Assembly (NCBI GenBank): GCA_965207275.1
Contig: CBDBMH010000001.1
Location: 553,244-617,243, forward strand
Reading direction: 5' to 3'
DNA: 64,000 nucleotides
Source: Dehalococcoidia bacterium
GTDB lineage: Bacteria; Chloroflexota; Dehalococcoidia; Lucifugimonadales; UBA3495
Part shown: positions 8,937 to 58,600 of the stretch, piece by piece
Position numbering within the stretch: position 1 is the stretch's first letter
Layout of the letters: the number at the start of each line of letters is the position of its first letter
Notes under the pieces: generated by a model
Told to the model about the DNA's origin: nothing
Seen by the model: the letters and a program-made list of their open reading frames with translations, nothing else
Database searches by the model: none
Program-made: the position numbers and the translations under genes

Positions 8937-8946
8937 TCCTTCCCTC

Positions 8947-12226: not shown

Positions 12227-12243
12227 CTGCGGTGGGCCGGCCT

Positions 12244-40103: not shown

Positions 40104-40813
40104 TAAACTTGGCTAGAGCAACGTCCCCGGCCGGAGACGCCGCCAACGCGGCGGGCAGCCCGGCCGGGTTTGCCGGGGTCGGGGCCGCTTCAAGAGCATG
40201 ACTATGGCGATTGTTGAACACCTGCTCCGCTCCGCTTACAGTTATTTCGGGTGGGACCGCCGGGGCCGGTTCCTTATCGGAAATGGCCCATTCCTATCCC
40301 GGCATTGACATTACGCGCAAACCTGATTTCAGCCGTTGCCTGCCCCTGTCAGGAAGGGTGGAACTGATGCGCGACAACCAATGCGCAGGACGGGGGACAT
40401 TGCACCGAAGTCCTCCGCCCGGGCTGCGGTCCACTCTTGCTGTCGCGTTGCAACAGTGCAGCAGGCTGCGAGGCCCACATTGAAAATTGTGGAAGTCTCG
40501 GGCGGTCTTGCAAAGCTCATAAAGAACCAATTAATCCGGGAATTTGTGCTAGCTTTGCGATGGAGCGATTTGCCCAATGCGGTTGGTACTTTCTGCTCTT
40601 TTGGCCCGCAGGAATCTGTTGTACTTTGAAGATGGATCAACTCGCGGGGTGGAACTGGCATATGTGCTGGATCAGGTCTGCAACATCAAGGCCGACCGGA
40701 ATGCCGGGCTTGGCCACGGAGGATTGGACCCGGTGAGGGCTGGCGCCGCATCCGTGCAGCGGTGGGTGACGGGCGGCGTCCCCACCGACCCGGACGTGGT
40801 GCGCTTCGCCACC

Positions 40814-41956
40814 ATGATCTCCATCTGGGGCCGCTGGTCCATGTGGTGCGTGGTGGTCTTCCAGCTGTCCTACAGGCCGGAGACCTGGTACCCCGACGAC
40901 GCCGAGTACCTGGTCTTTCCGGTGGTCCTGGGGTTGTGCAACGGCTTCGTCCACCTCCGGGTCCGGGCGAGGAGGTACGTGACCTGGCGCTGGATGCTCT
41001 TCCTCGGAGCCGTGGACGTTACCCTGGTCACCTACAGCGTCATCCTCGGCGGCGGGGTTCCCAGCTACAGTTTCGTGGCCTACTATCCCGCCCTGGCCAT
41101 CTTCGCCGTGGTCCTGTCGTACATCTGGCTCAGTCTCACCTGGACCACGGCCACCGTCGCCGTCTACGTTACCGTGTGCCTGCTGGCGGGGGACGGCGTC
41201 GACCTGGATGCCGGGGAGGATAAGGCGCTGGTGGCGAGGTCGGCGGTGATGTACATCCTGGTGCTGGGAATCAACGTCATCACCCGTTTCGAGCGGTCGC
41301 GGTGGCGGTCTTCGGTGGCGAGGGAGCGGCGGATGCGCGAGGAGCGGATGGAACTGTCCCAGAGAATCCACGACACGACGGCCCAGACCGCCTACATGAT
41401 CGACCTGGGGATCCACCGGGCCAGGGAACTGGCCGGCGACTCCAACCCGAAGCTCATCGAGGCCCTGGACGGGACCTCCATGCTGTCGCGGTCGGCCATG
41501 TGGGAGATGCGGGGGCCCATCGACGCCGGCCACATAGTCGAGGGCCGGGAGTTGGGACGGGTCCTGTGGTCGCACTGCGCGACCTTCGAGAGGATCACGT
41601 CGGTGGCTACGGAGATGTCGCAGTCGGGGACCGAGCCTCCCCTTGCCACCGCCACCCGGGCCGGACTCTTCTCCATTGCGCACAACGCCCTGACCAATGC
41701 CTTCCTCCACGCCCGTCCGTCCCGGGTGGCGGTGGCACTGAGCTTCGGGGCCGACCGGATCGGGCTGTCCGTCTCGGACGACGGGGCGGGCCTGCCCGGA
41801 GACTATGCCCAGCGGGGCCGGGGCATAGAGGGCATGAGAGCGGAGGCCGGGCGCCTGGGTGGAGAGCTCACCATCGAGAGTTCCGAAGAAGGCGGAACGA
41901 CCGTCGCTTGCTCGGCGCCCTACCAAAGGGATGACGTGGATGACGCAGATGACTGA
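40814..41956 (+). CDS. Membrane sensor histidine kinase, NarL-partner type (HisKA_3 + HATPase)
   Basis: About 6 TM helices. H-box LSQRIHDTTAQTAYMIDLGI, N-box IAHNALTNAFLHA, G-boxes VSDDGAGLP and GRGIEGM. The start is uncertain. The maximal ORF begins at 40577, and the ATG at 40814 immediately precedes the first TM helix. Confidence 0.8.
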   Translation: MISIWGRWSMWCVVVFQLSYRPETWYPDDAEYLVFPVVLGLCNGFVHLRVRARRYVTWRWMLFLGAVDVTLVTYSVILGGGVPSYSFVAYYPALAIFAVVLSYIWLSLTWTTATVAVYVTVCLLAGDGVDLDAGEDKALVARSAVMYILVLGINVITRFERSRWRSSVARERRMREERMELSQRIHDTTAQTAYMIDLGIHRARELAGDSNPKLIEALDGTSMLSRSAMWEMRGPIDAGHIVEGRELGRVLWSHCATFERITSVATEMSQSGTEPPLATATRAGLFSIAHNALTNAFLHARPSRVAVALSFGADRIGLSVSDDGAGLPGDYAQRGRGIEGMRAEAGRLGGELTIESSEEGGTTVACSAPYQRDDVDDADD

Positions 41957-41966
41957 GGAGGCTGAG

Positions 41967-42647
41967 ATGCCGTCGGAAGGTTCGATACGGGTGATGGTGG
42001 TGGACGACCATCCCATCGTGCTGAAGGGCCTGCGGGAGGTCCTGGAGGCGTCGGGCCGCATCGAGGTGGTGGGGCTGGCCGAGGATGGGGAGGAGGCGGT
42101 GAGGATGGCCCGGGAACTGAAACCCGACGTCATCATCATGGACGTGATCATGCACCGCATGGACGGCATCGACGCCTGCCGGGAGATCATGGAGCTCCTC
42201 CCCAGCACACGGGTGATGATGCTCACGGCGTCGACCGAGGAGGATGCGGTCATCGAGGCCATCGCGGCGGGGGCCACCGGCTACCTTCAGAAGTACTCTC
42301 GGCCCGAGGAGCTGCTGCAGGCGGTCATGGACGTGGCCGAGGACCGGCTGCGAATTCCCGACCGGGCGACCAGGCAGGTCTTCGCGATGCTCCGCAACCA
42401 GCAACAGCTCGTGTCCGCCCCGGCCCTGGACCGGCTGACCGCGCTGGAGCGGGAGACCCTCAGGCTGTTCGCCAGCGGAAAGTCCTACGCGCAGATTGCC
42501 GAGCTGCGGGGCAACAGGAACGTGACGGTGCGAAACACCCTGTACCGCATACAGGATAAGCTGAGGATCAAGACCAAGCAGGAACTGGTGATCTGGGCCG
42601 TGCGTAACGGGCTCATGGACGACATCGTGGTGGGCGAGGAACCGTAG
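41967..42647 (+). CDS. NarL/FixJ-family response regulator (REC + LuxR HTH, 226 aa)
   Basis: VMVVDDHPIV and DVIIMDVIM receiver motifs. LuxR HTH LTALERETLRLFASGKSYAQIAELRGNRNVTVRNTLYRIQDKL. GAGGAGG SD. Confidence 0.9.
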   Translation: MPSEGSIRVMVVDDHPIVLKGLREVLEASGRIEVVGLAEDGEEAVRMARELKPDVIIMDVIMHRMDGIDACREIMELLPSTRVMMLTASTEEDAVIEAIAAGATGYLQKYSRPEELLQAVMDVAEDRLRIPDRATRQVFAMLRNQQQLVSAPALDRLTALERETLRLFASGKSYAQIAELRGNRNVTVRNTLYRIQDKLRIKTKQELVIWAVRNGLMDDIVVGEEP

Positions 42648-43175: not shown

Positions 43176-43291
43176 GGCTGGTAGGCGATTCGGCGGGTTG
43201 GCTGAATTGACTCCGCCAATGAGCAGTGTCTTGACCAAGATGCACTGAGTAAGCTCACATCTCAGCGATTGCTGAAAGAGAGGTGAAAGAA

Positions 43292-44149
43292 ATGAGTACG
43301 CTGCCAACCGTGGGCCCAATTGGGCCGGCAGATACCCAAAGACTATTCGAAGAATTGGCCGAATTGACGTGGGGATGGCTGGCTGACGCTAGGCGCTTGG
43401 GTTTAGGGTTTTCCGAAGATACCATTTCCGACTTAGCCATGCTGGAAATTGGGCGTTCTGGCTCAAACAGCGTCGGAGTTAAGCGGGTTTCGAAGCGCCG
43501 AGAGCGGGTTGTGGGATTCGACTGGCTATGGGTGATTCTCAGGTCCGGCCGGCTACCCACGTTCTATGTTGTTCAAGCGAAGAAACTGCAACTGTACGAA
43601 AGGCCTCCATACTCATACGGAAGACTGAGGTATCCCACCGGAGCAAATTACCAAATCGACGCCCTTGAGGACTTCGCAAATTGGTTAGGTGCGGTTCCGA
43701 TGTACTGCTTCTATAACAATGTTGATGACCTGACTGCCCAATTACATTGGAATTGTCAAATACAGCGGCCCCCGAATCCTCTCCAAATGGGATGCACTCT
43801 CGCCCCTCTGGATGTGGTGCGACCAATCCATGATGGCAGAGGCCCCAAGAACTTCCACGCGATTCATTGGAGGAACCCGGAAGCTCTACCTTGGAGGTGC
43901 CTGTTTCATCCCTCTTGCGCCAGTTTCAGTTTGGGCCCAGCATCAGACAGCCACCCTATCGCAAATAGGAGTGAAGGGATGAACAGGATGCTCGAATTCC
44001 TTCCAGTATTGACCTCGGGAGACGAGGATTGGATCGACGTGGAGGAACTCGTCCGCCAACTTGACCTCGACGAATTGGTCGACAGGTATGAAAGCCGGAG
44101 TTTCACACCAATACCTGACAGGATTTTCTTTGCCAATCTGGAGGACTAG
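43292..44149 (+). CDS. Restriction-endonuclease-fold (Mrr-like D...QxK) protein, island gene 1 (285 aa)
   Basis: GAGAGG SD 8 nt before the ATG. Putative PD-(D/E)XK elements are LAMLEIG (E), VVGFDWLWVI (D) and FYVVQAKKL (QxK), followed by NYQIDALEDF. The fold call is an inference from the motif pattern. Confidence 0.45.
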   Translation: MSTLPTVGPIGPADTQRLFEELAELTWGWLADARRLGLGFSEDTISDLAMLEIGRSGSNSVGVKRVSKRRERVVGFDWLWVILRSGRLPTFYVVQAKKLQLYERPPYSYGRLRYPTGANYQIDALEDFANWLGAVPMYCFYNNVDDLTAQLHWNCQIQRPPNPLQMGCTLAPLDVVRPIHDGRGPKNFHAIHWRNPEALPWRCLFHPSCASFSLGPASDSHPIANRSEGMNRMLEFLPVLTSGDEDWIDVEELVRQLDLDELVDRYESRSFTPIPDRIFFANLED

Positions 44150-44291
44150 CTAGCTTATGCTTATCGACGGCTTTGCCAGTCCTCATCGTTTCGCGGGGTC
44201 AAGGTCCGTTGCGTCAACCAGACGGAATACGAAGGGGTCGAGACTAGGGGCACCATCCGGCAACGTGTCGAACCGTCATTTGGGGCGTGAT

Positions 44292-44314
44292 TGGTGTTGT
44301 ATAATACATCACCA
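44292..44314 (+). promoter_or_regulatory. Palindromic operator overlapping a TATAAT -10 box upstream of the HTH gene
   Basis: TGGTGTTGTAT-A-ATACATCACCA forms 11-bp arms with one mismatch. TATAAT at 44300-44305 lies inside it, about 40 nt upstream of the ATG at 44343. Confidence 0.5.
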
Positions 44315-44342
44315 CTATCGCGTCCGCGTGGACGGAGACAAC

Positions 44343-44543
44343 ATGACGATGCCAGAGGAGTTCACGGTACCCCAAGCGGCGACCTACCTCAAGGTAAGTG
44401 AGGAAACCGTCCGAAGGAACATTCGGGCGAAGCGCCTTTCGGCGCTGCGACGGGGCACCCAATGGTTCATTCCTTCCGAGGTGTTGGTGCTGTTTGCCAA
44501 CTCATACGATCCGAAGACAGGGAAGATAAAGCGGATGCTCTAG
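44343..44543 (+). CDS. Excisionase/MerR-type helix-turn-helix protein, island gene 2 (66 aa)
   Basis: FTVPQAATYLKVSEETVRRNIRAKRLSALRRGTQWFIPSEVL is the classic excisionase-family DNA-binding pattern. Confidence 0.75.
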   Translation: MTMPEEFTVPQAATYLKVSEETVRRNIRAKRLSALRRGTQWFIPSEVLVLFANSYDPKTGKIKRML

Positions 44544-44609
44544 CGCCCCTTGGCACTTGAACCCTTGGCCGCGAGGAAGTAATGCAGATCAATACGTCCG
44601 GGAAACTAC

Positions 44610-44638
44610 TTGACTCAGACTAGTGGGTGCATAAGAAT
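44610..44638 (+). promoter_or_regulatory. Candidate promoter TTGACT-17 nt-AAGAAT upstream of the GHKL operon
   Basis: The -35 TTGACT is at 44610-44615 and the weak -10 at 44633-44638, about 50 nt upstream of the GTG at 44690. Confidence 0.3.
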
Positions 44639-44689
44639 GCGCCCGCGTAACGGAGCGGCACCGACCTGCTCTCCCAGGGAGAATATCTC

Positions 44690-46564
44690 GTGAACGAACG
44701 ACCCTCATGGTACTTCCCACCTAGAGGTTGGGGACTGGATGTAATCCAAGACTCGTCCAGCACACACTTTAGGGACGACCCCATTCCAAAACTCGTCAGG
44801 GAGGTTTTGCAAAACTCCCTGGACGCTAATGACAGGGATTTAGTCGGCCCGGTAGAGGTGGAGATCGCCGAGAGCTACGTTGATGGCCGGACCATCGGTG
44901 CCAAAGAGCTGCAGAAGCACCTGGATTCGTGCTTGGAGAGGGCGAAAGAGGAAGACAGAAAAAACGTCCAAGCGTTTTACGGCAGGGCTCTGCAGGCGCT
45001 CGAGGCCGAAGAAATCCGGTGCCTTCAGGTCGTAGACGCCGGTACACTGGGACTCGTCGGCCGCAGCTGGGACGCTCTCGTGTTCCAAGAAGGATCAGTT
45101 CAGAAATCGGGGGCCGCTCCCGGTGGGTCTAACGGTGTGGGGAAAAACGCGGTGCTCAACGTAAGCGATCTTCGCACCGTGTTTTACAGCACCAGATATA
45201 TTCAACGGCGTGAAGGCAGGGTGGAAAAGCTCCAGGGCAAGGCCACCTTGATGGACCATCGCAACCCCCAGGACAAGAGCGAGAGCCTACAGCACGTTGG
45301 CTTCTATTCGATGCCTCAAGGGGAGCCGGTTTTGACTACGCAGATTCCCGGCTTTTTCCGGCTCGACGACGTGGGGACCGGTGTATTCATCATGGGATTC
45401 AACCCCAGGTCGAATGATTGGACCAGGGAAGTAACCGCTGCGGTCATCGAGAATTTCTTTCACGCCATACATCACAAGAAGCTCGTCGTCAGAGTAAAGA
45501 ACCGCATTGATGACCCCATTCTGATTAACCACGAAACCCTTGACTGGCTCTTCGAGCGTGAAAGCAGCAATAAACCGGCATTTCATTACTACAAAGCTAT
45601 CAGAGACGTGGAACCGGGGGAGACAGACCCTATCGGAAAAATTGGGCCGCTCAACGCATACGTTTTCATCGGTTCCGGTCCTCGCAGGACCGCATATATA
45701 AACCGCAATGGGATGCTAATCACCGACAGCCGTGAGCAGAAAATCAATCCAATTGCTCCGCGTGGCAAGAGCCTGTGGCCGGATTACTGTGTCGTGGTGA
45801 CGCCAGAATCCGACAGGGGAGACGAATGGATAAGGCAAACGGAGAACACAAGCCATGACTCCATGTCGCCCCGACAATGTTTCGAGGGTAGGGAGCTGAC
45901 CGAGGCGGAGCGCTGGTTCAGGCAGGCCAGAAACACAATAAGCAAGATCATTGACGATGCCGCCCAGGTGCAGAAGTACGGCGATACCACCAATCTGAGT
46001 GAGTTGGCGTCCATGTTCCCGGACGAGTTTGACCCCGAAAGCCCAGGGAACAAACTGCTGAAGACGAAGACCACCAACACTAGACTCGTAATACCCCCGT
46101 CCGTTACACCGGACCCGGAGTCTGGTCCAGATCCCGAACCGGGGCCGGGTCCGGGGCCTGACCCTGATCCTCGTCCCAATCCTGGCCCGGGACCTAGGCC
46201 AGACCCGGGACCAAATCCGAGGCCAGGGCCGGTGCCAGGCCCGGGGCCGGGCCAAAGAAGAAGCCGGCGGCCACGTATTGAACGTCCGCGCTTGATTCCC
46301 ACGGACCGGACTTCGGCTACAGTGGCGTTCACCCCAATGAGTGAAACGCCGCAGGAAATAGCCATCCGATTGAGACCGGCCGGAGGCGAGTGGGGCCAAG
46401 AAAATCCAATCGAGGTCGTGAGTGCTAAGGTCGTAAGCCCGGCGGGCCAAGAAGCCAAAATTCAAGACGGGTCGGTTCAATTGACTCCGCAATCCAACGA
46501 GCGAGTGGTGATCGAGATAGAGACCAGCGATGCGCTTGACGACTTTGCATTCAGGATAGGGTAA
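44690..46564 (+). CDS. GHKL/Bergerat-fold ATPase (Hsp90/sacsin/MORC-like), island gene 3 (624 aa)
   Basis: N-box REVLQNSLDA, DxGxG VVDAGTLGL, G-loop GGSNGVGKNA. Pro/Gly/Asp-rich linker (DNA 46108-46255), then a ~100-aa C-terminal domain. GTG start with GGGAG SD. Confidence 0.75.
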   Translation: MNERPSWYFPPRGWGLDVIQDSSSTHFRDDPIPKLVREVLQNSLDANDRDLVGPVEVEIAESYVDGRTIGAKELQKHLDSCLERAKEEDRKNVQAFYGRALQALEAEEIRCLQVVDAGTLGLVGRSWDALVFQEGSVQKSGAAPGGSNGVGKNAVLNVSDLRTVFYSTRYIQRREGRVEKLQGKATLMDHRNPQDKSESLQHVGFYSMPQGEPVLTTQIPGFFRLDDVGTGVFIMGFNPRSNDWTREVTAAVIENFFHAIHHKKLVVRVKNRIDDPILINHETLDWLFERESSNKPAFHYYKAIRDVEPGETDPIGKIGPLNAYVFIGSGPRRTAYINRNGMLITDSREQKINPIAPRGKSLWPDYCVVVTPESDRGDEWIRQTENTSHDSMSPRQCFEGRELTEAERWFRQARNTISKIIDDAAQVQKYGDTTNLSELASMFPDEFDPESPGNKLLKTKTTNTRLVIPPSVTPDPESGPDPEPGPGPGPDPDPRPNPGPGPRPDPGPNPRPGPVPGPGPGQRRSRRPRIERPRLIPTDRTSATVAFTPMSETPQEIAIRLRPAGGEWGQENPIEVVSAKVVSPAGQEAKIQDGSVQLTPQSNERVVIEIETSDALDDFAFRIG

Positions 46565-46569
46565 CGGCA

Positions 46570-47421
46570 ATGACCACCTGGAACGACAGATTGCTCCCTC
46601 ACCCTTTGTTGGCGCCTTGGACGGACGACTACCCGGAGGCGGCCTTTACGGCGCAAGTTCCGCACGCCGTGATTAACAATGGCAAGCAAATCAACTTGAC
46701 CATCAAGTATCACCTGACCAGCCAGTCGCTTCGGGACTTGATCTCAGAAGGCAAAGCCCACTACGTAAGCCTGGTGGCGTGCGCAAAGACCTTTAGCCGC
46801 AATTCCTATCCCTGCGAACACGAGGACGACCTCTGTATCCTGGACGCCCAGGACTTCTCTGAGGAACTCAAGCTCACTCCCTATGTGGTAGCCAAGCAGC
46901 CCATAGACGGATTCACGTCCTCCGAACTCGTGGACGAAATCACCCGTTTCAAGCCAGATGGGTTCCACATTCCAACAGGGTCGATACTGGCCGTCGGAAA
47001 TTCTACTGAGGTGGAGTTGGAAGAAGGGGGTAGTCCCTTTGCGGTTATCGACCTGGTTGCTGACGCCAAAGTCGAAAGCGGCACATTCAAGGTCGATCTT
47101 GATGATAACCGAATAAAAGTCTACATGGCTCCGGGGGACAAAGACCAGATCGAGGCGCTGCGTCAACACGGAGAACAAAGCTGGGAAATGGCAGTGTTGT
47201 TCCCTTCCATCTATCTCCATGCGATTTCCGAGGCGTTGCGGAACCTGGCCTACTATCCCGAAAACCGCTGGGCGCGAACCATGCAGAGGGCGCTTGAACG
47301 CCACAGCATAGTAGTTGACGAAGACGAACTGAAAGATAATGCACTTACCCACGCGCAGACCCTCATGGAGCGGCCTGTGGGGACGTTGATGAAAGCCCTC
47401 AGCCGCGAGGAGGAGGGTTAA
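46570..47421 (+). CDS. Hypothetical protein, middle gene of the GHKL/PP-loop operon (283 aa)
   Basis: 6-nt gap from the upstream gene and a TAATG overlap with the downstream gene. No motif recognised. Confidence 0.6.
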   Translation: MTTWNDRLLPHPLLAPWTDDYPEAAFTAQVPHAVINNGKQINLTIKYHLTSQSLRDLISEGKAHYVSLVACAKTFSRNSYPCEHEDDLCILDAQDFSEELKLTPYVVAKQPIDGFTSSELVDEITRFKPDGFHIPTGSILAVGNSTEVELEEGGSPFAVIDLVADAKVESGTFKVDLDDNRIKVYMAPGDKDQIEALRQHGEQSWEMAVLFPSIYLHAISEALRNLAYYPENRWARTMQRALERHSIVVDEDELKDNALTHAQTLMERPVGTLMKALSREEEG

Positions 47422-49043
47422 TGGAGATGGCTGCGCAGGAATTCCAGATTTTAAGGCTGACGCAAGAGGCATACGACCAACTCTGGTTGTTCGCTAGGGA
47501 GAATCCAAAAGCCTATCTCGACCCTGACACAGACTTCAATCGGGTCCTGCTTGACCGCGGCGTTACCGACTATGCGGAGGATACAGGGATTGTTGCTGAC
47601 AGCCCCATAAGTCTCACGCCAGTGGAGAGGGTCCCAGCGAATCGGGCAGACCGGCAGGCCTTGGACTTCCACCGTTCGATGCCAGATTTGACTCCCAGCG
47701 CCGCTACCGACAGCCTGATGTGGACCTGGATGACCCATTTCAGGTTGCACTCGTACAGTATCAAGCGCTGGCGCTTGCAGGGGGACCTGACCAATCACAT
47801 CAGGAACCACTGGTTCGTGGGAAACGAGTCGGACGCCCTACGTCAAAACAACACCGCGTCGCGTACCTGGTGGATTGCCAACACGGCGATCAAGGCAGCA
47901 AAGGCTTCGGGAGGCGCCTTCACCGAAGAGGAGGCGATAAATCATTTCGCCAATAACCCCCGCCACTACCACAACATGATGGACTCGAACTTCAGCAGAC
48001 ATCCGGTCGTATGCGCCGAAATGTTGCTGGCGCTCATGACTGAGGCTAGAGGAATCTCTGGGGTGGGTTCCGACCAAATCTGGAAACGGATGAATTTAGC
48101 CGCCGGAACCCTGCTACTGGACGCGATGCCCAGGGAGCAGCTAAGGGAGCGCATCAACCACCACATCGACGAAATAATGTCGGTCTCTGACTTCGTGACA
48201 GACCGTACCAAGCTGCGGAATCGTGTTCCTTGTCGTGTACTCAGCCTGGGGGCAGGGGTTCAATCATCCTGTCTGGCCCTGCTTGCTGAACGAGGGGAAT
48301 ATGGCCTTCCCAAGCCCGACTTTGCCATCTTCGCCGATACAGGCTGGGAACCTCAGGCCGTTTACGACCACCTAGATTGGCTCAAATCGCAGCTCTCATT
48401 TGAAGTCATTCGTGTCAACAATGGGAACATTCGGGAAAACATACTACAAGGCCGGATGCCCGACGGGTCGAGGTTTCTAGGAATTCCCGCGTTCCTGCGC
48501 AATACTGACGGAAGCACCGGTATCCTGCACCGACAATGCACGACCCACTATAAGACAAAGCCAATCCACGATTACCTCAGAGACAGGCTAGGACTAAAGC
48601 CCGGCAGGAGGGCCCCTTCCGACGTCCAAGTGGAAATGTGGCTTGGAATAAGCACCGACGAAGCGATACGACAGAAGCCCGACCAGGAGGAATGGGTCAC
48701 AAAGCGGTACCCGCTCATCGACTTGGGGTTTAGCCGAGGTCAGTTGTTGAATTGGTTCAGAGAAAATTACCCTGGCCACCATTTACCTAGCAGTTCCTGT
48801 GTCGGATGTCCGTACCACAGTGACTCGGTCTGGAAGCAGTTGAAGGAAAGCGACCCCAAATCCTTCCAGGATGCTGTCTTCATCGACCAGGCGCTACGCA
48901 ATGTCCCTATTGTAAAAGACACGGTCATAGGAGAGGCATATCTCCATCGATCAAGGACCCCGCTGTTGGAAGTGGATCTTGAGGAGATACCCAGTTATGA
49001 AGACTTAATGCTGGATGAATGCGAAGGGCTTTGCGGGATTTAG
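47421..49043 (+). CDS. PAPS-reductase-like PP-loop enzyme with a ~270-aa N-terminal helical extension, island gene 5 (540 aa)
   Basis: PP-loop variant RVLSLGAGVQSSCLALL, then FADTGWEPQAVYDH. C-terminal Cys pair SSCVGCPYHS. I do not recognise the N-terminal half. Confidence 0.75.
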   Translation: MEMAAQEFQILRLTQEAYDQLWLFARENPKAYLDPDTDFNRVLLDRGVTDYAEDTGIVADSPISLTPVERVPANRADRQALDFHRSMPDLTPSAATDSLMWTWMTHFRLHSYSIKRWRLQGDLTNHIRNHWFVGNESDALRQNNTASRTWWIANTAIKAAKASGGAFTEEEAINHFANNPRHYHNMMDSNFSRHPVVCAEMLLALMTEARGISGVGSDQIWKRMNLAAGTLLLDAMPREQLRERINHHIDEIMSVSDFVTDRTKLRNRVPCRVLSLGAGVQSSCLALLAERGEYGLPKPDFAIFADTGWEPQAVYDHLDWLKSQLSFEVIRVNNGNIRENILQGRMPDGSRFLGIPAFLRNTDGSTGILHRQCTTHYKTKPIHDYLRDRLGLKPGRRAPSDVQVEMWLGISTDEAIRQKPDQEEWVTKRYPLIDLGFSRGQLLNWFRENYPGHHLPSSSCVGCPYHSDSVWKQLKESDPKSFQDAVFIDQALRNVPIVKDTVIGEAYLHRSRTPLLEVDLEEIPSYEDLMLDECEGLCGI

Positions 49044-49084
49044 AAACTGCACATGTTCCAAATTTGTAGCTGGCAGCACAGGCG

Positions 49085-49591
49085 ATGAGCACCGACCGAG
49101 AATTCTTCGACGACATCATTTCCATTCTGCAAAAGCATAGGTTGAGGTTCGTTCATTCTCCCCAGATGTGGCAGCAGTGCAATCTGCCGGTCACCCTGGA
49201 ATGGAATTCAGTGGAATTTTCGGAGAATAACGGTGACAGCGTTCCTTCGGATAAGTTTGGAGTCTACGCCTTTATGTTGGAGCCAAATTTCGCCGGTCCG
49301 CCTAAATCCGCATATCTGCTTTATATAGGAAAAACAGGCCGGCATTTTCAGGTGAGATACAAGGAGTACCTCTACGAAGAAGATCAAGGATTTGCCCGTC
49401 CCCCGATTTCCAGAATGCTGGAAAGGTGGAGCGGACACATTTCATTTCACTATGCTCCGATTGAGGATCCGGGTTTGCTTCGTCGAACGGAAGAGGCTCT
49501 CTTAAATGCCTGTATCCCTCCATACAATCGACAGTTCACGGGAAGAGTCGGAAGGGCAATTATGGCCTTTCGGCAGGATAGCGGAGGTTAA
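49085..49591 (+). CDS. Stand-alone GIY-YIG nuclease-like protein, island gene 6 (168 aa)
   Basis: GIY element FGVYAF. YIG element YLLYIGKTGRHFQVRYKEY with the conserved Arg. Distal EEALLNACIPPYN (Glu/Asn). Confidence 0.65.
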   Translation: MSTDREFFDDIISILQKHRLRFVHSPQMWQQCNLPVTLEWNSVEFSENNGDSVPSDKFGVYAFMLEPNFAGPPKSAYLLYIGKTGRHFQVRYKEYLYEEDQGFARPPISRMLERWSGHISFHYAPIEDPGLLRRTEEALLNACIPPYNRQFTGRVGRAIMAFRQDSGG

Positions 49592-49597
49592 TCCGAC

Positions 49598-50917
49598 ATG
49601 ACAACTTCATCGTCAACAAAACTCTTGCCCGCAATCCAAGGAAAGATAGGAGACTGGTACTACTATATGACCACGTTGCCTCTTTCTGAAGTTGCAGAAA
49701 GAGTCCAGCCAGCCCGTGAGTTAGTAACTCCGAAGGACATGAACGAGTGGATTCAACGAGAGGTAATTCCAACCCACATCCGACAGATAGCGGATTACCT
49801 CATGCACCGAGAACAGCATTTCTTCCCTGCCATCGTGGTTGGGGTTTACCTTGGAGAGCCAACTTGGCATGAAATTAACATAGAGGAAAATGCCCTCTTC
49901 GAGACTCCAGCCCTCGACCCCAGGTCGAGGTCCACCCTTGGCTTACTGGAACTGGATGGTACGGAGCGGTTGTACGCAATAGATGGTCAGCACCGCGTAG
50001 CGGGAATAAAGAAGGCGCTTGCCCGTTTAACCAAAGCGAATGATACTGAAGGCTATAACCGTCTGGCCAGTGAAGATCTGGCGGTAGTTTTTGTTTCCGC
50101 AGATATCGATAGGGAAGGCCAACGTGAACGAGTGCGCAGGCTATTTACTACTCTTAACAAGCAAGCGAAAAGGGTAACCGAGCCTGAAATCGTCGCCCTC
50201 GATGAGGACGACCCCGCTGCGATAGTTACTCGTTGGATCGCGATTCGCTATTCTGGATTGAAGGCGTTCAACCAAAACGGGAGTGAATCTGACCACAATC
50301 TCATTCAGTTGGGAAGGCAACACGAGATACGGCCGAACAATCGACGGAGCGTCACGACCATTGTAACTCTGTACCGCATGATAAAGAATGCGTTCCAGTT
50401 GGAACTCAAGGAAATCGCAGCAGAAAATAATCACGGTCGGCCTGCCGAAGAAACGCTAGAGAACCTCTACTCCAAGGCCGAGGCGCTATGGGATATGCTA
50501 AGGCTCTACGATCCGGCACTAGGCTATGTGTTGGCGTCCGACCCAAGTGATGAGCGCGCCGCAGCGTACCGCACCCTAGAAGGGGGACACATGCTGTTCC
50601 GTCCTGTAGGTTTGCAAGCGTTTTCTGGGGCTTTGGGGGTACTACGCGTGAGGGGGGTAGATACGGACTTAGCGGTAAGAAGCCTGTGCCGCCTACCGAC
50701 GGAGATCTCAATACCGCCTTGGGAGCACGTAGTTTGGAATCCCAGCACCCGCGGCATGATTACAGCGAACAGGACTCTGGCCGAAGCGCTATACCTTCAC
50801 ATGGTGGGGGAACGACCTCGGACGCTGAGGTATCCGATAGGAACTAAATACCGGGAGGCACTCGGCATACGAAACGGAGACCCATTGCAACAGGTAACGG
50901 TATTTGGGCTGGAGTAG
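49598..50917 (+). CDS. DGQHR-domain protein (DndB/DpdB-like ParB-fold), island gene 7 (439 aa)
   Basis: Exact motif LYAIDGQHRVAGI. N-terminal GKIGDWYYYMTTLPLSEVA...REV..THIRQIADYL resembles DndB-type proteins. Confidence 0.8.
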   Translation: MTTSSSTKLLPAIQGKIGDWYYYMTTLPLSEVAERVQPARELVTPKDMNEWIQREVIPTHIRQIADYLMHREQHFFPAIVVGVYLGEPTWHEINIEENALFETPALDPRSRSTLGLLELDGTERLYAIDGQHRVAGIKKALARLTKANDTEGYNRLASEDLAVVFVSADIDREGQRERVRRLFTTLNKQAKRVTEPEIVALDEDDPAAIVTRWIAIRYSGLKAFNQNGSESDHNLIQLGRQHEIRPNNRRSVTTIVTLYRMIKNAFQLELKEIAAENNHGRPAEETLENLYSKAEALWDMLRLYDPALGYVLASDPSDERAAAYRTLEGGHMLFRPVGLQAFSGALGVLRVRGVDTDLAVRSLCRLPTEISIPPWEHVVWNPSTRGMITANRTLAEALYLHMVGERPRTLRYPIGTKYREALGIRNGDPLQQVTVFGLE

Positions 50918-51147
50918 CCCTTCCTAGAACGGTTAACGTGCTAGTCCGTGTCTAGGTACACGTTGCGGAGGGTCTGTTAAACGGTCGTGGCCGTAAACGT
51001 GAGGTATCAAGGATTAGTCAGCATTTCTACTGGCTGCGCAGAGCCATAGTCCATGCTTTGACGCACCTCCTTCACAGGATGATCGCTCATATTCAGGGAT
51101 TGTCCTGATGACCCGAGGTATATCCCAGTTCCGAGGAGGCCCCGATA

Positions 51148-54100
51148 ATGGCGGGAACAGAAACCTTGAAAGATTTGTCGCGTGTTCAATCCTCCGTTGA
51201 TCGACTGGTCAATGCGTCAGAGGACCAACTGCCATCGGCCTTTGAGGAATTATCCCGGTCGATTCTTGAACACTATGGCGTAACTTACGACTCGACGGCC
51301 ACCAGTAAATTGTTCTCTCGTGATTTGCCTTTACCGGTTCAGAGCTTTGCGGCTACTTGGCTGGTTCGCTGCCTGACCAGGTCTTCCTCGGCACTCAGAT
51401 TTGGACATACTGAGCGACTAGCAGCCGACCTGTTCGACCAAATCTTCCAACACAATGTTTACCAGCGCGCCAACATTGACCATCGACAGCAGACTTTTGA
51501 GAAGTTACGAGCTTTAGAAGGGCATTTGCATTCGATATTGATTGATGCCGAAGGGCTGGTGTCAGTCTCTCCAAATCTAGGTCAGCTTAACTCCTTCCTT
51601 CAAAGACTATTGGCCTTCTTAAATCATCGTGGGAATCAACCTTTTCTAACCCACCTTTTGCCCGCTCCGTTGCTTCATCAGTCCCGAATCGCCAATTTGT
51701 TTCAAGTTGTAGCCGACTACGCTGACAATCTAGACGGTGATCCCATTCATAAGCGCGATGCTGCAGTGGAAGCTTGTGAGGAATTCGAAAGGGAGGCGCA
51801 GGAATTCGGCACTATAGATGCCGAGCGCATTCTAGGTGCCCTAGCCCGGCAGCTCAAGTCGGCTGTAGAGAGCCATTTCGAATCTTCGGAATCGGGCAAG
51901 AGCCCGACCCTTGCGTTCGGCCCCATTAGCAAGAAATATCCTTTGGAAAGGGTTAGTGAGACTGTTTCCTTCAGAATCAAAGTGGACAATCACGGCACCG
52001 GTCCGGCAAGGGACTTGAGGCTTGATGGAGTCGCAGTCGACGAGTGTCTTCTTATTCAGGCTTCCTCCATTGGTCTTGGAACCCTACAGCCCGGGGATTC
52101 CTTGGTCTTCGACATCGTGGCAAGTGTGGTTGCACCTTCCTCAGGGGCAACAATGGTGGCAGAATTTTCCTGGAGTTCGCCCGGGGGGAGGGTAGGGGAA
52201 ACCCACACTTTCGAAGTTCCTGCGCAACGAGGGGATGTTAATTGGGTTTCAGTAGAGCTCACTGAGCCTTATTCGCTGGAGCCAGTAGCCACAGAGGACG
52301 ATCTTATTGGCCGGAAGGCAGAGCTGACCCGCTTGCTTCGACTGGCCAACAGCCGGACAGTCGGGTCTGGGTTCATCTTTGGTCAAAAGAGAGTAGGCAA
52401 GACATCACTGGCTAACGCTGTTGAAGAGAGCCTTGAATCGAGTTCTGACATCAAATGGGTCGTGATAAACAAGGGTAGCGGGGATTACGTAGGAGACGAT
52501 GCTCATAGCAGTCTGCGAACGATGGGAGAAGTCCTGGCAGAAGCTATCATAGACCGAGTACCACATCTGAATGACACACCTATCCCGGACTTTACCAGTG
52601 GGCTCTCTCCTCTGTCTCGTTTGGTAGATCAAGCTCTCGTCCAAGGAGACCTGCGAATTCTATTCATTTTGGATGAATTCGATGAGTTGCCACCCGAGCT
52701 GTTCAGACGGACTGATCTGGCGACGGCTCTGTTTCAGCCACTGCGCCAGATAAGCAACAAACGAGGTTGTGGGTTCCTCTTGGTAGGGGGAGAAAGTATG
52801 CAGCAAATTGTCAATTCTCAAGGGGATCGCCTCAACAAATTCACTCCCATTGAACTAGACTACTTCACCAGATCAAACAACTGGAATGATTTCGTCGAGC
52901 TCATTAGGAGGCCAGTACAGGATTGGTTGACCATAAGCGATGGCGCTCTTGAGGAACTTTTCACTTCCAGTGCAGGGAATCCGTATTTCGCCAAGCTGTT
53001 GGCACGCCAACTGTTTGCAGATATGGTCGACAATCGCTATAGCGATGCGAGTGAAGTGGATATGGGTACTGCGATAGACCATACACTGTCCACAATTGGA
53101 GCCAACTCTTTCGCTCACTTCTGGACTGACGGTTTAGCCCAATCCCCTAACAACGCGGAAGAGATACGCATAACCAGGCGATCAGTCTTGATTGCAGCTG
53201 GCCGGGCCTTTCGGAAAAACCCTTTTGTCAACTATGAAGGCATTTGGGAGGAATTCAAGCACGCAGCCGGGTTGCCGGTAGAGGAACAGCGTTTTCGGAT
53301 TACATTGCAAGACTTCCTTCGTCGGAAGATATTTGTGGAGGATGAAGCTGGCGGCGTTAGTCCCAAGATTCCGCTATTTCGGTCTTGGCTGATGGACAAA
53401 GGGGTTAGAGACCTATTGGAGGATTCTCAAGAGCTAGATTACTTGAGGTCCAGGCTGCAAGAAGAAGAGGAAGTGCGGGTAACGGACGGTGAAATCTTGT
53501 GTCTCTCCGAGCGTCTGGAGAATTTCCGCTATCGCGGCCGCGCTATTGAGACGACGGCGATTAGGAGATGGCTCGGGCAATTCGACGGCCCCAGGGAACA
53601 GCGGTTGATGTTCCGGTTGGCATCGGCCGTGAGGTGTTACGACGAAGATGCCGTTCGGACCAAAATGCGCGAGGCCTTCGGTATCGTAATGCGGAATATG
53701 CGTACCGTAATCGAGCCAAGGGCAAGGGTACGCAATGACATCCTAGTTAGCCCTCTGGATGATTCACCGGCTAAGTCGGGATCGACCTATTGCCGACTGT
53801 TCGTCAGTGAGAACAGATTATCGACTAATTCAGTTCATACTCTGGAATCGCTGGAGCGAAGGTTTCCAACTAATAATGAGGTTCAACGCCTTGTGCTCAT
53901 TGATGATTTCTCTGGTACAGGGGCGACTTTGGCTGGCGGACTGAAACGGCATTCAGACCTTCTTCGCCGCCTGAACTCGGAGGGCGTCCGTATAATTGTC
54001 ATAGCCTTGGTAGGATTTTCGGAAGCCCGCGAACACATCGAGCACTTTGTCGAGCAGGCAGGAATCGAGGCTGATGTCTATTTCTGCGACGAGTTGGGCC

Positions 54101-54330
54101 CAGAACATAGAGCTTTCTCAGAGTCCTCCTCTATCTTTCCAGAGGTCGCTGAACGGGACCTTGCCAGACAAATTGCAGAGTCCAGGGGTGTGGCACTAGA
54201 GCGGAGGTTCCCCCTCGGGTACCAAGACACACAAGGGTTGATCGTCTTTCACCAAAGTTGTCCAAATAACACGTTGCCAATCTTTTGGTCTCGGAATGGG
54301 GATTGGAATCCATTGTTTCCGCGCATCTAA
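51148..54330 (+). CDS. Multidomain P-loop (STAND/ORC-like) NTPase with a beta-sandwich module and a C-terminal phosphoribosyltransferase domain, island gene 8 (1060 aa)
   Basis: Walker A GQKRVGKTSLANA and Walker B RILFILDEFDEL, preceded by LIGRKAELTRL. CARDB-like stretch KVDNHGTGPARDLRL...LGTLQPGDSLVFDI. PRPP-binding loop RLVLIDDFSGTGATLAGG. GAGGAGG SD. Confidence 0.75.
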   Translation: MAGTETLKDLSRVQSSVDRLVNASEDQLPSAFEELSRSILEHYGVTYDSTATSKLFSRDLPLPVQSFAATWLVRCLTRSSSALRFGHTERLAADLFDQIFQHNVYQRANIDHRQQTFEKLRALEGHLHSILIDAEGLVSVSPNLGQLNSFLQRLLAFLNHRGNQPFLTHLLPAPLLHQSRIANLFQVVADYADNLDGDPIHKRDAAVEACEEFEREAQEFGTIDAERILGALARQLKSAVESHFESSESGKSPTLAFGPISKKYPLERVSETVSFRIKVDNHGTGPARDLRLDGVAVDECLLIQASSIGLGTLQPGDSLVFDIVASVVAPSSGATMVAEFSWSSPGGRVGETHTFEVPAQRGDVNWVSVELTEPYSLEPVATEDDLIGRKAELTRLLRLANSRTVGSGFIFGQKRVGKTSLANAVEESLESSSDIKWVVINKGSGDYVGDDAHSSLRTMGEVLAEAIIDRVPHLNDTPIPDFTSGLSPLSRLVDQALVQGDLRILFILDEFDELPPELFRRTDLATALFQPLRQISNKRGCGFLLVGGESMQQIVNSQGDRLNKFTPIELDYFTRSNNWNDFVELIRRPVQDWLTISDGALEELFTSSAGNPYFAKLLARQLFADMVDNRYSDASEVDMGTAIDHTLSTIGANSFAHFWTDGLAQSPNNAEEIRITRRSVLIAAGRAFRKNPFVNYEGIWEEFKHAAGLPVEEQRFRITLQDFLRRKIFVEDEAGGVSPKIPLFRSWLMDKGVRDLLEDSQELDYLRSRLQEEEEVRVTDGEILCLSERLENFRYRGRAIETTAIRRWLGQFDGPREQRLMFRLASAVRCYDEDAVRTKMREAFGIVMRNMRTVIEPRARVRNDILVSPLDDSPAKSGSTYCRLFVSENRLSTNSVHTLESLERRFPTNNEVQRLVLIDDFSGTGATLAGGLKRHSDLLRRLNSEGVRIIVIALVGFSEAREHIEHFVEQAGIEADVYFCDELGPEHRAFSESSSIFPEVAERDLARQIAESRGVALERRFPLGYQDTQGLIVFHQSCPNNTLPIFWSRNGDWNPLFPRI

Positions 54331-54660
54331 TAGAGGTTTGTGGAAATCCATCGGTAGCGCGAAGCGCCGTTGCATACACGCATTCAAAAGTCCTACTGCT
54401 GCTCAATCCGTCAATCGGGAGTTTCTAGTACAACCGTCTTCCAGTTTGGTATTATAGGGTCACTAGCATCTCGAAGATGGTACTGTCTACCGTCAAGTCC
54501 GGCCCACCAAGCTGGATAAAATCAAGAACTTTCCACATCAGGTTCGCCCTGGACTTGTAGGCGCCCTTGGCCGCGCCCACTGTGAGGCCGCGTTTGGCCC
54601 TGCTGGTGGCAAAGGCGGCGAGGCGGTTGCAAACGGCCAATCACTGCACGGCAACCAAGC

Positions 54661-55622: not shown

Positions 55623-55657
55623 CTTGCCTCGTGCTGGCTGTCCGGCCAGGCCCCGGG

Positions 55658-58600
55658 CTAGTCGTCGTCCACGATGGTCATGGTTCCCACCGCGTCGGGC
55701 GGGTGGTAGTTCCCGGGCAGGAACGCCTCCACCGCGAAGTACTCGTCCGGCTCGTCGTCCTCGTCCTGCTCCAGCCACACCTCCGCCGTCAGCACCGTCA
55801 CTCCCGGCTTGAACACCAGTTCTCCCTCCGCCGGCTGGTAGTCGGACCGGTGCGCCCGGTCGTCCAGCAGGTGGTAGGCCGGCGCGGTGTACCACCGCAC
55901 CCGGATCTCCTCGGTGGGCGCCGCCGACAGCGCCACCCGGAACTCCAGCACGTCGCCCTCCACCGCCGAGGCGTCCGCCACGGTCACGCTGATCTCCACC
56001 TCCGGGGCCGCGTCGTCGTTGTCGGCCACGGCCACCGTGGCCGCGCCCTGGGTCGAGGACACCGTGTAGTCGCTGCCCGCGTTCACCGTCGCCGTCACCG
56101 ACCCGTCGGTCTCGTCCGCGCTATCGTCCGTGGTGCCAACGGTCAGGGTGACGCTGCCCGTGGTGGGGACGGTCACCGTGCGCTGTCCCGTGGCCGCGCC
56201 GTAGTCGCCGGTCTGGGTGACCGTGACCTTCACGTCCAAGTTGGACGCCGGCGCCGGGCTGGCGCTGACGGTGAAGCTCGCGCTCCCGCCCTCGGTGATC
56301 CCGCCGCCCCCGCTGACGCTCACCACCGGGGTGGGGGCGTCGTCGTCGTCGGACACGGCCACCGTGGCCGCGCCCTGGGACGAGGACACCGTGTAGCCGC
56401 TGCCGGCGTTCACCGTGGCCGTGACCGAGCCGTCGGCCTCGTCGGCGTCGTCGTCGGTGGTGCCCACGGTGAGGGTGACGCTGCCCGAAGTGGGGACGGT
56501 CACCGTGCGCTTGCCGGTGGTGGCGCCGTAGTCGCCGCTCTGGGACACCGTGACGCTGACGTCCAGGTTGGACGCCGGGGCCGGGCTGGCGGTCACCGTG
56601 AAGACGGCGTCGCCGCCCTCGGTGATCCCGCTGCCGCCGCTGCCGCTCACCACCGGCGTGGGGGCGTCGTCGTTGTCGGCCACGCCGACCGTGGCCGCGC
56701 CCTGGGACGAGGACACCGTGTAGCCGCCGCCGGCGTTCACCGTGGCCGTCACCGACCCGTCGGCCTCGTCGGCGCTGTCGTCGGTGGTGCCGACGGTGAT
56801 GGTGACGCTGCCCGAAGTGGGGATCGTCACCGTGCGCTTCCCCGTGGCCGCCCCGTAGTCGCCGCTCTGGGACACCGTCGCGCTCACGTCCAGGTTGGAC
56901 GCCGGGGCCGGGCTGGCCGTCACCGTGAAGACGGCGTCCCCGCCCTCGGTCACCCCGCTGCCCGCGCTGACGCTCACCACCGGCGTGGGGGCGGCGTCGT
57001 CGTCGGACACGGCCACCGTGGCCGCGCCCTGGGTCGAGGACACGGTGTAGCCGCTGCCCGCGTTCACCGTGGCCGTCACCGACCCGTCGGTCTCGTCGGC
57101 GCTGTCGTCCGTGGTGCCGACGGTGAGGGTGACGCTGCCCGTGGTGGGGATGGTCACCGTCCGCTGGCCCGTGGCCGCGCCGTAGTCGCCGCTCTGGGAG
57201 ACCGTGACGCTGACGTCCAGGTTGGCCGAAGGCGCCGGGCTGGCGGTCACCGTGAAGACGGCGTCGCCGCCCTCGGTCACCCCGCTGCCGCCGCTGACGC
57301 TCACCTCAGGCGTGGGCGGCGGCGGAGGCGTCTGTGCCGCCTCCGCTTCCAGGGCGGTCAGCTCGACGACCACCAGGTCCCACACCGGGCTGCTGTGATT
57401 GTCGGCCATGTCCTGCGCCTCGGCCGCCGTCATCGGGCCGCCGGTGACGCCGGTGCCGTCGTGCTTGCCGAAGGCCAGCAGCACCCGGTTCCAGCGGTTA
57501 ACGTGGGCCGTCCCGTGCTGCGTCTGCGACGCCAGCTCCCTGACCTTCGCGATCACGTCCGGGTCCACCGTGTAGCCCGTCTGCTCCTCGACGACCGGGT
57601 CGTCGTTGTCTGCGACGCCGACCGTCTCCGACGACGGCGCCCCCACCGTGTAGCCGCTGCCCGCGTTGACGGTCAGCGTGACCGAGCCGTCGGCCTCGTC
57701 CACCTCGTCGTCCGTGGTGGCGATGGTCACCGTGGCGCTGCCCGACGTTGGGATGGTGACGCTGGCGGGCAGCGTCCCGTACCCGAAGTCCCCGGTCGTG
57801 GCGACCGTGACGCTCACCGCCAGGTCCGCCGCCGGGGCCGGGCTGGCCGTCACCGTGAAGACGGCGTCCCCGCCCTCGGTCACCCCGCTGCCCGCGGTGA
57901 CGCTCACCTCCGGCGTGGGGGCGGCGTCGTCGTCCAGCAGCGGCAACGTGACGCGGGAAGGGTCGCCCAGCGTGTAGCCCTCGCCGACCACAATTTGCGC
58001 CACCAGCGTGCCGTCGGACAGCGCGTCGTCGTCGGAGTAGGCGATGATGGTCTGCGATGCGGACGACTCGAAGGCCTTGATGACCAGCGTGAGGAACTGT
58101 TCACGCGCGACGCGGTCCGCACCCTCGCCCATCTCCTCGATAACGCTCACGATGACCGGCGTGTCGACCGGCGGGACCGGGCTGGCGCTGACCGTGAAGG
58201 TCACGTCGCCGCCCTCGGCCGCCGACAGCGCGTTGCTGGAGAGCGTCATCGTGGAGCCGTCGTTGAGCGTCCCCAGCGCCGAGAACGCGCGGCGGATCTC
58301 CGGCGGCGCAGTGGACGGCGGCGTGAACTGGTTGCAGTCCACCTTGACGCTGAACTTGTTCGACGGCCAGCCGGACGGCGACTGCAACTGCACGCAGAAC
58401 GTCACGGCCTCCCCCGGCACCTCGTCGTTGCGCAGGGTCACCGGCGTGATCGTGATCCGGTAGACCGGGTCGCCGGGGTTCGAGCGGTCGCGGTACGTGG
58501 TCTTCAGGCCGGTGTTGACGATGCCCGCCCTGTACGGCTCCTGGTTGACCACGCCGTCGTGCCCGATGACCCGGTCAACACGCCGCGAGTAGATGTACGT

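Follow-up and report, generated by a model that had tools for sequence, protein, structure and literature searches.

A low-G+C (guanine plus cytosine) island in a 64,000-nucleotide stretch of the Dehalococcoidia contig CBDBMH010000001.1, referred to here as the window, carries eight genes, G1 to G8. Their central operon, G2 to G7, is a credible candidate for a new phosphorothioation-like system on a different motor. The explanation we favor, and to which we give about an even chance, is that of a horizontally acquired defense island made up of three unrelated blocks. The central block would be restriction-modification-like, with G3-G5 as a sulfur-marking module and G6-G7 as its exchangeable partner.

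A first-pass annotation of the window had proposed a compositionally foreign island of eight genes on one strand, every one of them of conflict type, and these features were borne out. The interval 43176-54545 has 53.3% G+C, compared to 67.5% in the left flank and 70.3% in the right flank. In 1-kb windows the G+C fraction ranged from 0.49 to 0.585 within the island and from 0.59 to 0.75 elsewhere in the window. G+C at third codon positions (GC3) was 0.53-0.68 in the eight island genes versus 0.74-0.87 in the flanking genes, which encode a histidine kinase, a LuxR-type response regulator and a small lipoprotein. Eight plus-strand open reading frames (ORFs) with short intergenic gaps fill the interval, and all of them are of conflict type. 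The island and its central block, which includes genes for a helix-turn-helix (HTH) protein and for an enzyme with the fold of 3′-phosphoadenosine-5′-phosphosulfate (PAPS) reductase, are as follows.

43176..54563, no strand assigned: the whole low-G+C island, 53% G+C against 67-70% in the flanks
44343-50917, plus strand: central block B, six genes (HTH, G3, G4, G5, G6, G7)
44343..44543, plus strand: G2, excisionase-type HTH protein of 66 aa, first gene of block B (HTH_17 38.8 bits, TIGR01764 34.5 bits)
44690..46564, plus strand: G3, PDC-M33A homolog (PADLOC 1.4e-65)
46570..47421, plus strand: G4, PDC-M33B homolog, predicted beta-sandwich plus helical domain (PADLOC 7.5e-36)
47421..49043, plus strand: G5, DUF6339 (residues ~1-262) and PAPS-reductase-fold domain (~268-540), from Pfam, PADLOC, PHROG and Foldseek
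49085..49591, plus strand: G6, small URI/GIY-YIG-like protein, partner of G7 (conserved G59, Y61, Y80, G82, R91, E136)
49598..50917, plus strand: G7, DGQHR-domain (ParB-fold, DndB-like) protein (TIGR03187 2e-28, 99.9 bits; Pfam DndB 7e-26, 91.5 bits)

The island had also been treated as one gene set, and this part of the first-pass annotation did not survive comparison with related loci. The island was compared by blastn and tblastn with 70 related loci (numbered here with the prefix L); tblastn with the eight proteins was run on 66 loci that had been recovered through G5. The genes G3, G4 and G5 have the same order and strand in every full-length locus (about 30) and are separated by 5-nt gaps or overlap; G3 is present upstream of every full-length G5. 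G6-G7 lie directly downstream of this triad in 12 of the approximately 30 full-length loci, and G2 is found upstream of it in the closest loci only. G1 and G8 are absent from all 66 loci recovered through G5. A single eight-gene system is ruled out, since G1 and G8 never accompany the triad. L067 aligns collinearly with the segment 44343-50930, with 79% of nucleotides identical. In L005 and L006 the match (85-86%) extends from about 44285-44341 only as far as the stop codon of G5 (49043), beyond which they carry other versions of G6-G7; the joint between G5 and G6 is thus a recombination point. G8 alone matches L068-L070. Judged from these alignments, the island is composed of three independently inherited blocks: G1, the HTH gene with G3-G7, and G8. 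In most hosts the central cassette is lower in G+C than its surroundings. Defense genes found near the triads include type ISP restriction-modification, CBASS, a MzaB-like (MORC-like) GHKL gene with PLD, and Shedu.

The case for a sulfur-marking module begins with G5. Its N-terminal half matches Pfam DUF6339 (2.4e-22) and PADLOC PDC-M33C (6.5e-22) and is modeled as an all-helical domain. The C-terminal domain matches PHROG 424 (2e-39) and PADLOC SspD (6.2e-11), and the top Foldseek matches of the G5 model are CysH and adenosine-5′-phosphosulfate reductase; the sulfurtransferases TtuA, LarE and TrmU are among its structural neighbors. The PAPS-reductase-like enzyme of the first-pass annotation is thereby confirmed. 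Five cysteines are conserved in this domain (Cys373, Cys460, Cys463, Cys534 and Cys538). It is 25% identical to genuine SspD, with which it has in common the motifs DTGxE, RxCT..K..P and SxCxxC and a C-terminal cysteine pair. G5 has 855 homologs at 58-91% identity, mostly in metagenome-assembled genomes of Dehalococcoidia, with some in Acidimicrobiia and Gemmatimonadota. Among 1.84 billion representative proteins, the DUF6339 domain forms 384 clusters at 50% identity, some of them stand-alone proteins of ~250 aa and others PAPS fusions of ~540 aa.

The two genes upstream of G5 would supply its partners. G3 has the predicted layout of an N-terminal GHKL (sacsin/Hsp90-like) ATPase followed by a Pro/Gly-rich linker (residues ~466-525) and a small C-terminal domain. 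E38, N42 and D45 (N-box), D116..G121 and G146-K152 are invariant and correspond to the N-box, G1 and G2 motifs. Weak Pfam SACS matches were seen in 4 of 12 homologs. G3 gave no Pfam HATPase match, and with hhalign only the N-box aligned to MORC-like neighbors, at 5% probability. The earlier call of a GHKL ATPase is supported only by the invariant motifs and the weak sacsin-domain matches. The stop codon of G4 overlaps the start of G5, and 180 homologs of G4 were found. Its AlphaFold model (pLDDT 74.8) had only generic Ig-like beta-sandwich matches, with E > 1e-3, and neither its fold nor its sequence had a significant match in the PDB. Searches of PDB sequences with profiles of G3, G4 and G5 returned nothing useful. 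The linker of G3 (window 46085-46265) is of low complexity and varies in length and composition among homologs. It also yields long spurious antisense ORFs at 45716-46570 and 45784-46458, both on the minus strand.

By its profile matches and gene order, the triad is a member of the PADLOC candidate PDC-M33, as a variant in which the C subunit has gained a DndC/SspD-type domain. PDC-M33 is one of 145 PADLOC candidate PDC systems ('guilt by embedding', Payne et al., 2024 preprint). The A, B and C models match G3, G4 and the N-terminal half of G5, and the three homologs are consecutive and on one strand, as in the classical form. A small upstream ORF is present in both: the classical plasmid loci open with an ORF of 76-80 aa, and G2, the excisionase-type HTH protein foreseen in the first-pass annotation, encodes 66 aa. 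The start of G2 is the ATG at 44343 and not the mechanical ORF start at 44157, as indicated by synteny and homologs; in nucleotide alignments with L067, L005 and L006 the synteny sets in at 44285-44343, and the L067 homolog of G2 is likewise a 66-aa ORF. The island differs from the classical form in that its C subunit has an extra PAPS-reductase-fold domain of 270 residues, the G6-G7 pair follows, and the lineage is mainly Dehalococcoidia. A literature search returned no paper naming PDC-M33 or DUF6339, and a survey of Dnd neighborhoods made no mention of a GHKL ATPase or DUF6339.

The classical plasmid order is small ORF, A, B and a DUF6339 protein of ~255 aa. Four such loci were inspected: L232 on pMP1046A of L. 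salivarius (Ligilactobacillus), L233 (Planococcus), L231 (Deinococcus) and L234 (Arthrobacter). DNA methyltransferase genes lie beside PDC-M33 in all four plasmids, either Dcm with Vsr, or type I HsdM/S with a large methyltransferase. This adjacency could reflect embedding in restriction-modification systems, or it could be a hint of exchangeable modification enzymes. As a lead from four examples, and by analogy, the A-B-DUF6339 core may work with interchangeable modification enzymes, which would be a methyltransferase in classical loci and the PAPS-fold domain in the island. Exchangeable modification enzymes have been proposed earlier for DndD-DndE cores. Two further arrangements were seen among the relatives of the triad. 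In L014 (11717-15446, minus strand) and L046 (11695-15469, minus strand) a second, inverted PDC-M33-like triad, with proteins of 634, 293 and 302 aa and a C subunit without the PAPS domain, lies directly downstream of the fused triad. In L004 and L015 from Dehalococcoidia (7217-9136 and 11766-13130) G3 is split by a frameshift, and the gene after G5 encodes a radical-SAM/HHH_3 'DNA modification/repair' protein in place of G6-G7.

The second line of evidence is the company kept by G6-G7. G7 is a DGQHR/DndB-like protein, as had been predicted, with the invariant motifs DGQHR, RRLFTTLNK and ALDEDD. Its score against the DndB equivalog TIGR03233 is 42.7 bits, far below the cut-off of 328, and G7 is for this reason placed in a paralogous DGQHR family. 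G6 itself matched no family. The core positions of GIY-YIG nucleases (G-Y, Y-G, R and E) are conserved in it, in agreement with the nuclease assignment made in the first pass, but Pfam GIY-YIG matches were weak and confined to 1 of 10 homologs (E 0.018 and 0.065). A metagenome scan with the G7 alignment gave 80 loci. In 71 of them a G6 homolog is directly upstream of G7, and the remainder are cut by contig ends. Co-occurrence of the island's homologs thus holds for G3-G4-G5, always, and for G6-G7, and fails for G1 and G8, which are never with the rest. None of the 80 loci contains G3, G4 or DUF6339. A Dnd or Ssp modification gene is present in 52 of the 80, and in 32 of the 39 that are at least 7 kb long. 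The arrangements directly before G6-G7 include the following.

L107, L139, L123, L137 and L141: SspB-SspC-SspD before G6-G7 (PADLOC 1e-110, 0 and 6e-138)
L075 and L085: DndC-DndD before G6-G7 (PADLOC 1e-152 and 3e-153)
L111, L080 and L120: DndC-DndD-DndE::HerA before G6-G7

Other partners are found beside triads that lack G6-G7. In L017, L018 and L060 the triad is directly followed by PbeA (1e-169) and by PbeB-like and PbeC-like genes; in L029 these are found upstream. DUF262-DUF1524 genes resembling SspE/GmrSD lie directly after G5 in L027 and L029. With these arrangements, the triad occupies the position of the Dnd/Ssp modification genes relative to three kinds of phosphorothioate-associated partner. 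DndC, DndD, DndE, SspB and SspC were found in no triad locus, nor in the window, by phmmer with metagenomic DndC, DndD and DndE::HerA or by PADLOC, and G5 is thus the only candidate modification enzyme there. An HNH_2 protein of 300 aa follows G7 in L006 (13686-14588), L008 (13675-14577), L067 (14428-14706) and L140 (1895-2689); PADLOC groups it with type IV modification-dependent restriction endonuclease-like proteins. A weak precomputed match of the 92-aa truncated HNH_2 copy in L067 to the sulfur-binding domain SBD_ScoMcrA was not reproduced on that fragment, nor was the domain recovered in L006 and L008, whose HNH proteins are full-length (300 aa). It is not used as evidence.

Dnd, Ssp, Tdp and BREX type 4 are the four established systems of DNA phosphorothioation. 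The ATPase partner in Dnd, Ssp and BREX type 4 (DndD, SspC and BrxC) is of the P-loop type. In these three systems a PAPS-reductase homolog acts with an ATPase and a DNA-handling protein (PMC12914056). In BREX type 4 the PAPS reductase is fused to a DNA-handling domain in BrxP, which together with BrxC is enough for phosphorothioate synthesis (PMC12914056). The cysteine desulfurase of these systems is often supplied by housekeeping genes elsewhere in the genome (PMC12914056). The ParB-fold protein DndB occurs in Dnd neighborhoods, which have URI nucleases at their edges; in Ssp the restriction component that senses the mark is SspE, likewise of ParB fold (PMC10853773).

The central operon resembles Ssp, Dnd and BREX type 4 in part. 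With Ssp it has in common the combination of a PAPS-fold enzyme with a predicted ATPase and a putative DNA-handling protein, the match of the G5 C-terminal domain to the SspD model with its cysteine motifs, a ParB-fold protein (G7) like the sensor domain of SspE, and a G6-G7-type pair, which in metagenomes follows genuine SspBCD. It differs in having no SspA, SspB (DUF4007) or SspC and only an SspD-like domain (6e-11, 25% identity). Further, its ATPase is predicted to be GHKL rather than P-loop, its nucleotide-binding loop is not SGGxDS, and its predicted nuclease is encoded separately and URI-like, where Ssp has a fused DUF1524 domain. With Dnd and Dnd-Pbe it has in common a DGQHR/DndB-family protein, a putative URI nuclease at the boundary and, in four loci, PbeA-C modules flanking the triad, but it has no DndC (SGGxDS PP-loop), DndD (SMC-like ABC ATPase) or DndE, and G7 lies below the DndB equivalog cut-off. 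BREX type 4 offers a PAPS-reductase domain fused to a DNA-handling domain, with one ATPase, and a cysteine desulfurase provided in trans. The fusion partner here is DUF6339, whereas in BREX type 4 it is DUF4007, and neither BrxC, PglZ, BrxL nor, for G5 in particular, BrxP was matched by PADLOC among the eight proteins. Membership in Dnd, Ssp, BREX type 4, Dpd or the retrons is ruled out, since core genes are missing. The statement of the first-pass annotation that the whole gene set fits no named system has to be amended in that parts of it map to catalogued entities: G3-G5 match PDC-M33A, B and C and G8 matches PRTase-CE and the phosphoribosyltransferase (PRTase) of type III-A retrons.

Tdp calls for separate consideration. 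It is very improbable that the triad is the published TdpABC of extremophiles, in which TdpC alone makes phosphorothioate and TdpAB restricts, or a close relative of it. Both are three-gene A-B-C sets with the modification enzyme encoded by the last gene, and tdpC alone suffices for phosphorothioate synthesis (PMC12914056). However, none of G3-G5 has a name in NCBIfam release 20 (June 2026), and no Tdp label occurs among the names in PHROGs, Pfam and PADLOC. In Tdp a hexameric, ATP-driven DNA translocase (TdpA) is combined with a nuclease (TdpB). These fit neither a GHKL ATPase nor the beta-sandwich protein G4, and it is by description only that the operon is set apart from TdpABC.

The mechanism proposed for G3-G7 is modeled on the precedents of Dnd, Ssp and BREX type 4, from which we infer a DNA substrate, a sulfur mark, the division of labor among the proteins and an anti-phage activity. 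The HTH protein G2 would regulate the operon. G3, as the ATPase, together with G4 and DUF6339, would scan host DNA and bring the fused PAPS-fold domain to it, filling the ATPase and DNA-handling roles of DndD/DndE, SspC/SspB and BrxC/DUF4007. The PAPS-fold domain of G5 would then install a mark, most likely a phosphorothioate or some other that depends on sulfur, with a housekeeping cysteine desulfurase as the sulfur source. Judging from DndB and the ParB-like sensor domain of SspE, the part of G6-G7 would be to restrain or sense the mark and to nick DNA without it.

It is possible, as a more tentative extension, that G3-G5 constitutes a fifth and mechanistically distinct phosphorothioation or sulfur-marking machine. 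In it a GHKL ATPase would replace the P-loop ATPases, and DUF6339 with G4 would replace DndE/SspB. The enzyme would have been captured from PAPS-reductase-like genes of phages and plasmids, and G6-G7 would be a universal mark-reading partner for Dnd, Ssp and G3-G5. If DNA is indeed modified, the modification chemistry would be portable between unrelated DNA-scanning motors. The same enzyme fold is coupled to a predicted GHKL ATPase and two domains of unknown function in a conserved lineage of hundreds of protein clusters, mostly from uncultured Dehalococcoidia. Such a reading would be the first functional hypothesis for PDC-M33 and DUF6339. It would tie the abundant 'PAPS reductase' genes of phages and plasmids, usually taken as auxiliary sulfur-metabolism genes, to DNA modification. 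With a small nuclease and DGQHR pair common to Dnd, Ssp and the triad system, a DndB-like role becomes directly testable.

Several observations weigh against a sulfur-marking module. The assignments of G3 to GHKL ATPases and of G6 to GIY-YIG nucleases are putative, drawn from motifs and weak matches, and no structural or sequence analog was found for DUF6339 or G4. No cysteine desulfurase is present in the cassette, and a motif search of the whole 64 kb found none. G5 binds nucleotide, by prediction, through the loop SLGAGVQSS, which is that of CysH and of phage enzymes and not the SGGxDS of DndC/SspD, so that its reaction may not be the adenylation-based one of phosphorothioation. The C-terminal domain of G5 is closest, at 36-49% identity, to stand-alone proteins of 250-300 aa encoded by phages or conjugative plasmids, where they adjoin Dcm methyltransferase and ArdC genes. 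The non-canonical loop and these mobile-element relatives in DNA-modification and anti-restriction neighborhoods suggest an alternative, which we consider improbable: G3-G5 would modify nucleic acid with a mark other than phosphorothioate, such as base thiolation, PAPS sulfonation or another PAPS-reductase/PP-loop product, using an enzyme borrowed from phage or plasmid relatives. TtuA, LarE and TrmU among the fold neighbors would fit such a chemistry. On the other hand, every partner module seen beside the triad belongs to phosphorothioate-associated families, and the cassette has no genes of an alternative substrate pathway.

Two further points bear on the partnership itself. About 17 of the 30 triads lack G6-G7, and with recombination at the G5/G6 joint this means that the two modules could be neighbors rather than partners. 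Classical PDC-M33 lacks any PAPS domain and is nevertheless conserved as HTH-A-B-C, from which it follows that the A-B-DUF6339 core must be able to work without it. These points, with the routine juxtaposition of unrelated systems in defense islands and a loop that is CysH-like rather than PP-loop, would be expected if the triad were a modification-independent innate defense like classical PDC-M33, with the PAPS-fold domain as effector or sensor and G6-G7 merely a neighboring system. The domain might then bind a sulfonucleotide or ATP or use it up, or, once the GHKL protein has sensed infection, act against nucleic acid or protein of the phage. We regard this as unlikely, in view of the slot adjacent to the triad, which repeatedly holds families tied to phosphorothioate (the DndB-like pair, Pbe and SspE-like genes), the cysteine set of G5, which matches that of SspD, and the precedent of BrxP, a fused PAPS domain that makes phosphorothioate. 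The sulfur-marking module, with G6-G7 as its exchangeable partner, is accordingly retained as the preferred explanation of block B.

Stand-alone PAPS-reductase-like proteins were seen on 131 viral stretches (viral contigs in which they lie beside Dcm methyltransferase, single-stranded DNA-binding protein and helicase genes) and on 181 plasmids, mostly of Agrobacterium/Rhizobium, beside ArdC and Dcm. As judged from neighboring genes, their context is one of DNA modification or anti-restriction rather than sulfur metabolism.

The outer blocks of the island and the element at its right border are as follows.

43283..44149, plus strand: G1, DUF6615 protein, putative nuclease, block A (Pfam DUF6615 1.7e-7, 31.5 bits)
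51148..54330, plus strand: G8, STAND-type P-loop NTPase with a C-terminal PRTase-CE effector (VLIDDFSGTGAT), block C (Walker A GQKRVGKTS)
54497..54563, plus strand: right-border element of ~70 nt (GGCCCACCAAGCTGGATAAAATCAAGAAC...TGTAG), coincident with the G+C shift, with copies found by nhmmer in related loci

G1 is an orphan DUF6615 protein, possibly a nuclease. The restriction-endonuclease fold proposed for it in the first pass is putative, DUF6615 being its sole match. It has no homolog in the 70 related loci and no match in PADLOC, NCBIfam, PHROGs or PDB sequences. PDB sequence searches with single G1, G7 and G8 gave nothing useful. In G8 the fusion of a P-loop NTPase to a phosphoribosyltransferase, already recognized in the first pass, was recovered as matches to Pfam PRTase-CE (4e-46, 158 bits), AAA_22 and ATPase_2 and to PADLOC PRTase_III-A (6e-36). 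Its homologs with 76-83% identity occur as single genes whose surroundings are unrelated, one between transposases and one beside a MORC-like pair. G8 is best read as an independent, stand-alone STAND sensor with a PRTase effector; once triggered, the NTPase would release the phosphoribosyltransferase-fold effector in the manner of abortive infection. The nearest known counterparts of G8 are STAND NTPases with PRTase effectors and the PRTase of type III-A retrons, with PRTase-CE (158 bits), PRTase_III-A (6e-36) and the P-loop AAA_22/ATPase_2 domain in common. The difference is that the island has no reverse transcriptase domain among its eight proteins and no noncoding RNA matched by Rfam, and G8 is a single gene in all contexts examined. 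A literature search on PRTase-CE returned nothing.

In 100-bp windows the G+C content shifts at ~43190-43200 and ~54500-54560. The absence of an integrase, a transposase and a flanking direct repeat, reported in the first-pass annotation, was confirmed: no ORF is of integrase size and there is no room for one within the interval, no repeat of 11 nt or longer is common to the two junctions, and no tRNA was found in the 64-kb window. In place of the usual marks of an integrative island (integrase, tRNA target, flanking direct repeats) there is a one-sided border element only. The mechanism of insertion is still unexplained, as had been stated, with the addition that the right-border element of ~70 nt recurs at or near the borders of related islands. 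Copies were found in L005 (17086-17154), at the G+C shift of that locus; in L021 (6706-6773), 550 nt upstream of G3; and in L032 (16186-16251), L008 (21452-21519) and L048 (6935-7000). In L048 the element abuts the CCA end of tRNA-Ile(GAU), close to a relic of G5 and several transposases. Two copies in L001 (1641-1685 and 14587-14637) form a weak inverted pair around the island. The element includes a small hairpin, CTGGAT-AAA-ATCAAG; it belongs to no Rfam family, contains no long ORF and is not repeated at the left border. The lack of a long ORF rules out a protein C-terminus, and the lack of an Rfam match rules out a known Rfam RNA; a tRNA 3′ half is ruled out because a tRNA was called in L048 only. 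The element may be a relic of an att site.

An empty site for comparison was sought in the nearest histidine kinase-response regulator neighborhood, that of L068 and L069. Its proteins are merely 48-55% identical, and the junctions are for this reason set by composition alone. In these two loci a HisKA_3 kinase/LuxR-type regulator pair (L068 15167-17085, L069 12282-14200) adjoins the transposase-flanked G8 homolog (76% identity). The pair is 48-55% identical to that bordering the island (window 40577-42647), and genes for cadherin/Ig-like surface proteins lie alongside. The site beside the HisKA_3/LuxR pair may be a recurrent integration hotspot. Giant surface-protein genes bracket the region of the island, one at 32657-40027 (minus strand, 2456 aa) and the other at 55658-61396 (minus strand, 1912 aa), with Ig-like, SWM-repeat and Calx-beta domains. 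The latter gene is overlain by an antisense ORF of 1272 aa (55631-59449, plus strand), which is typical of high-G+C DNA.

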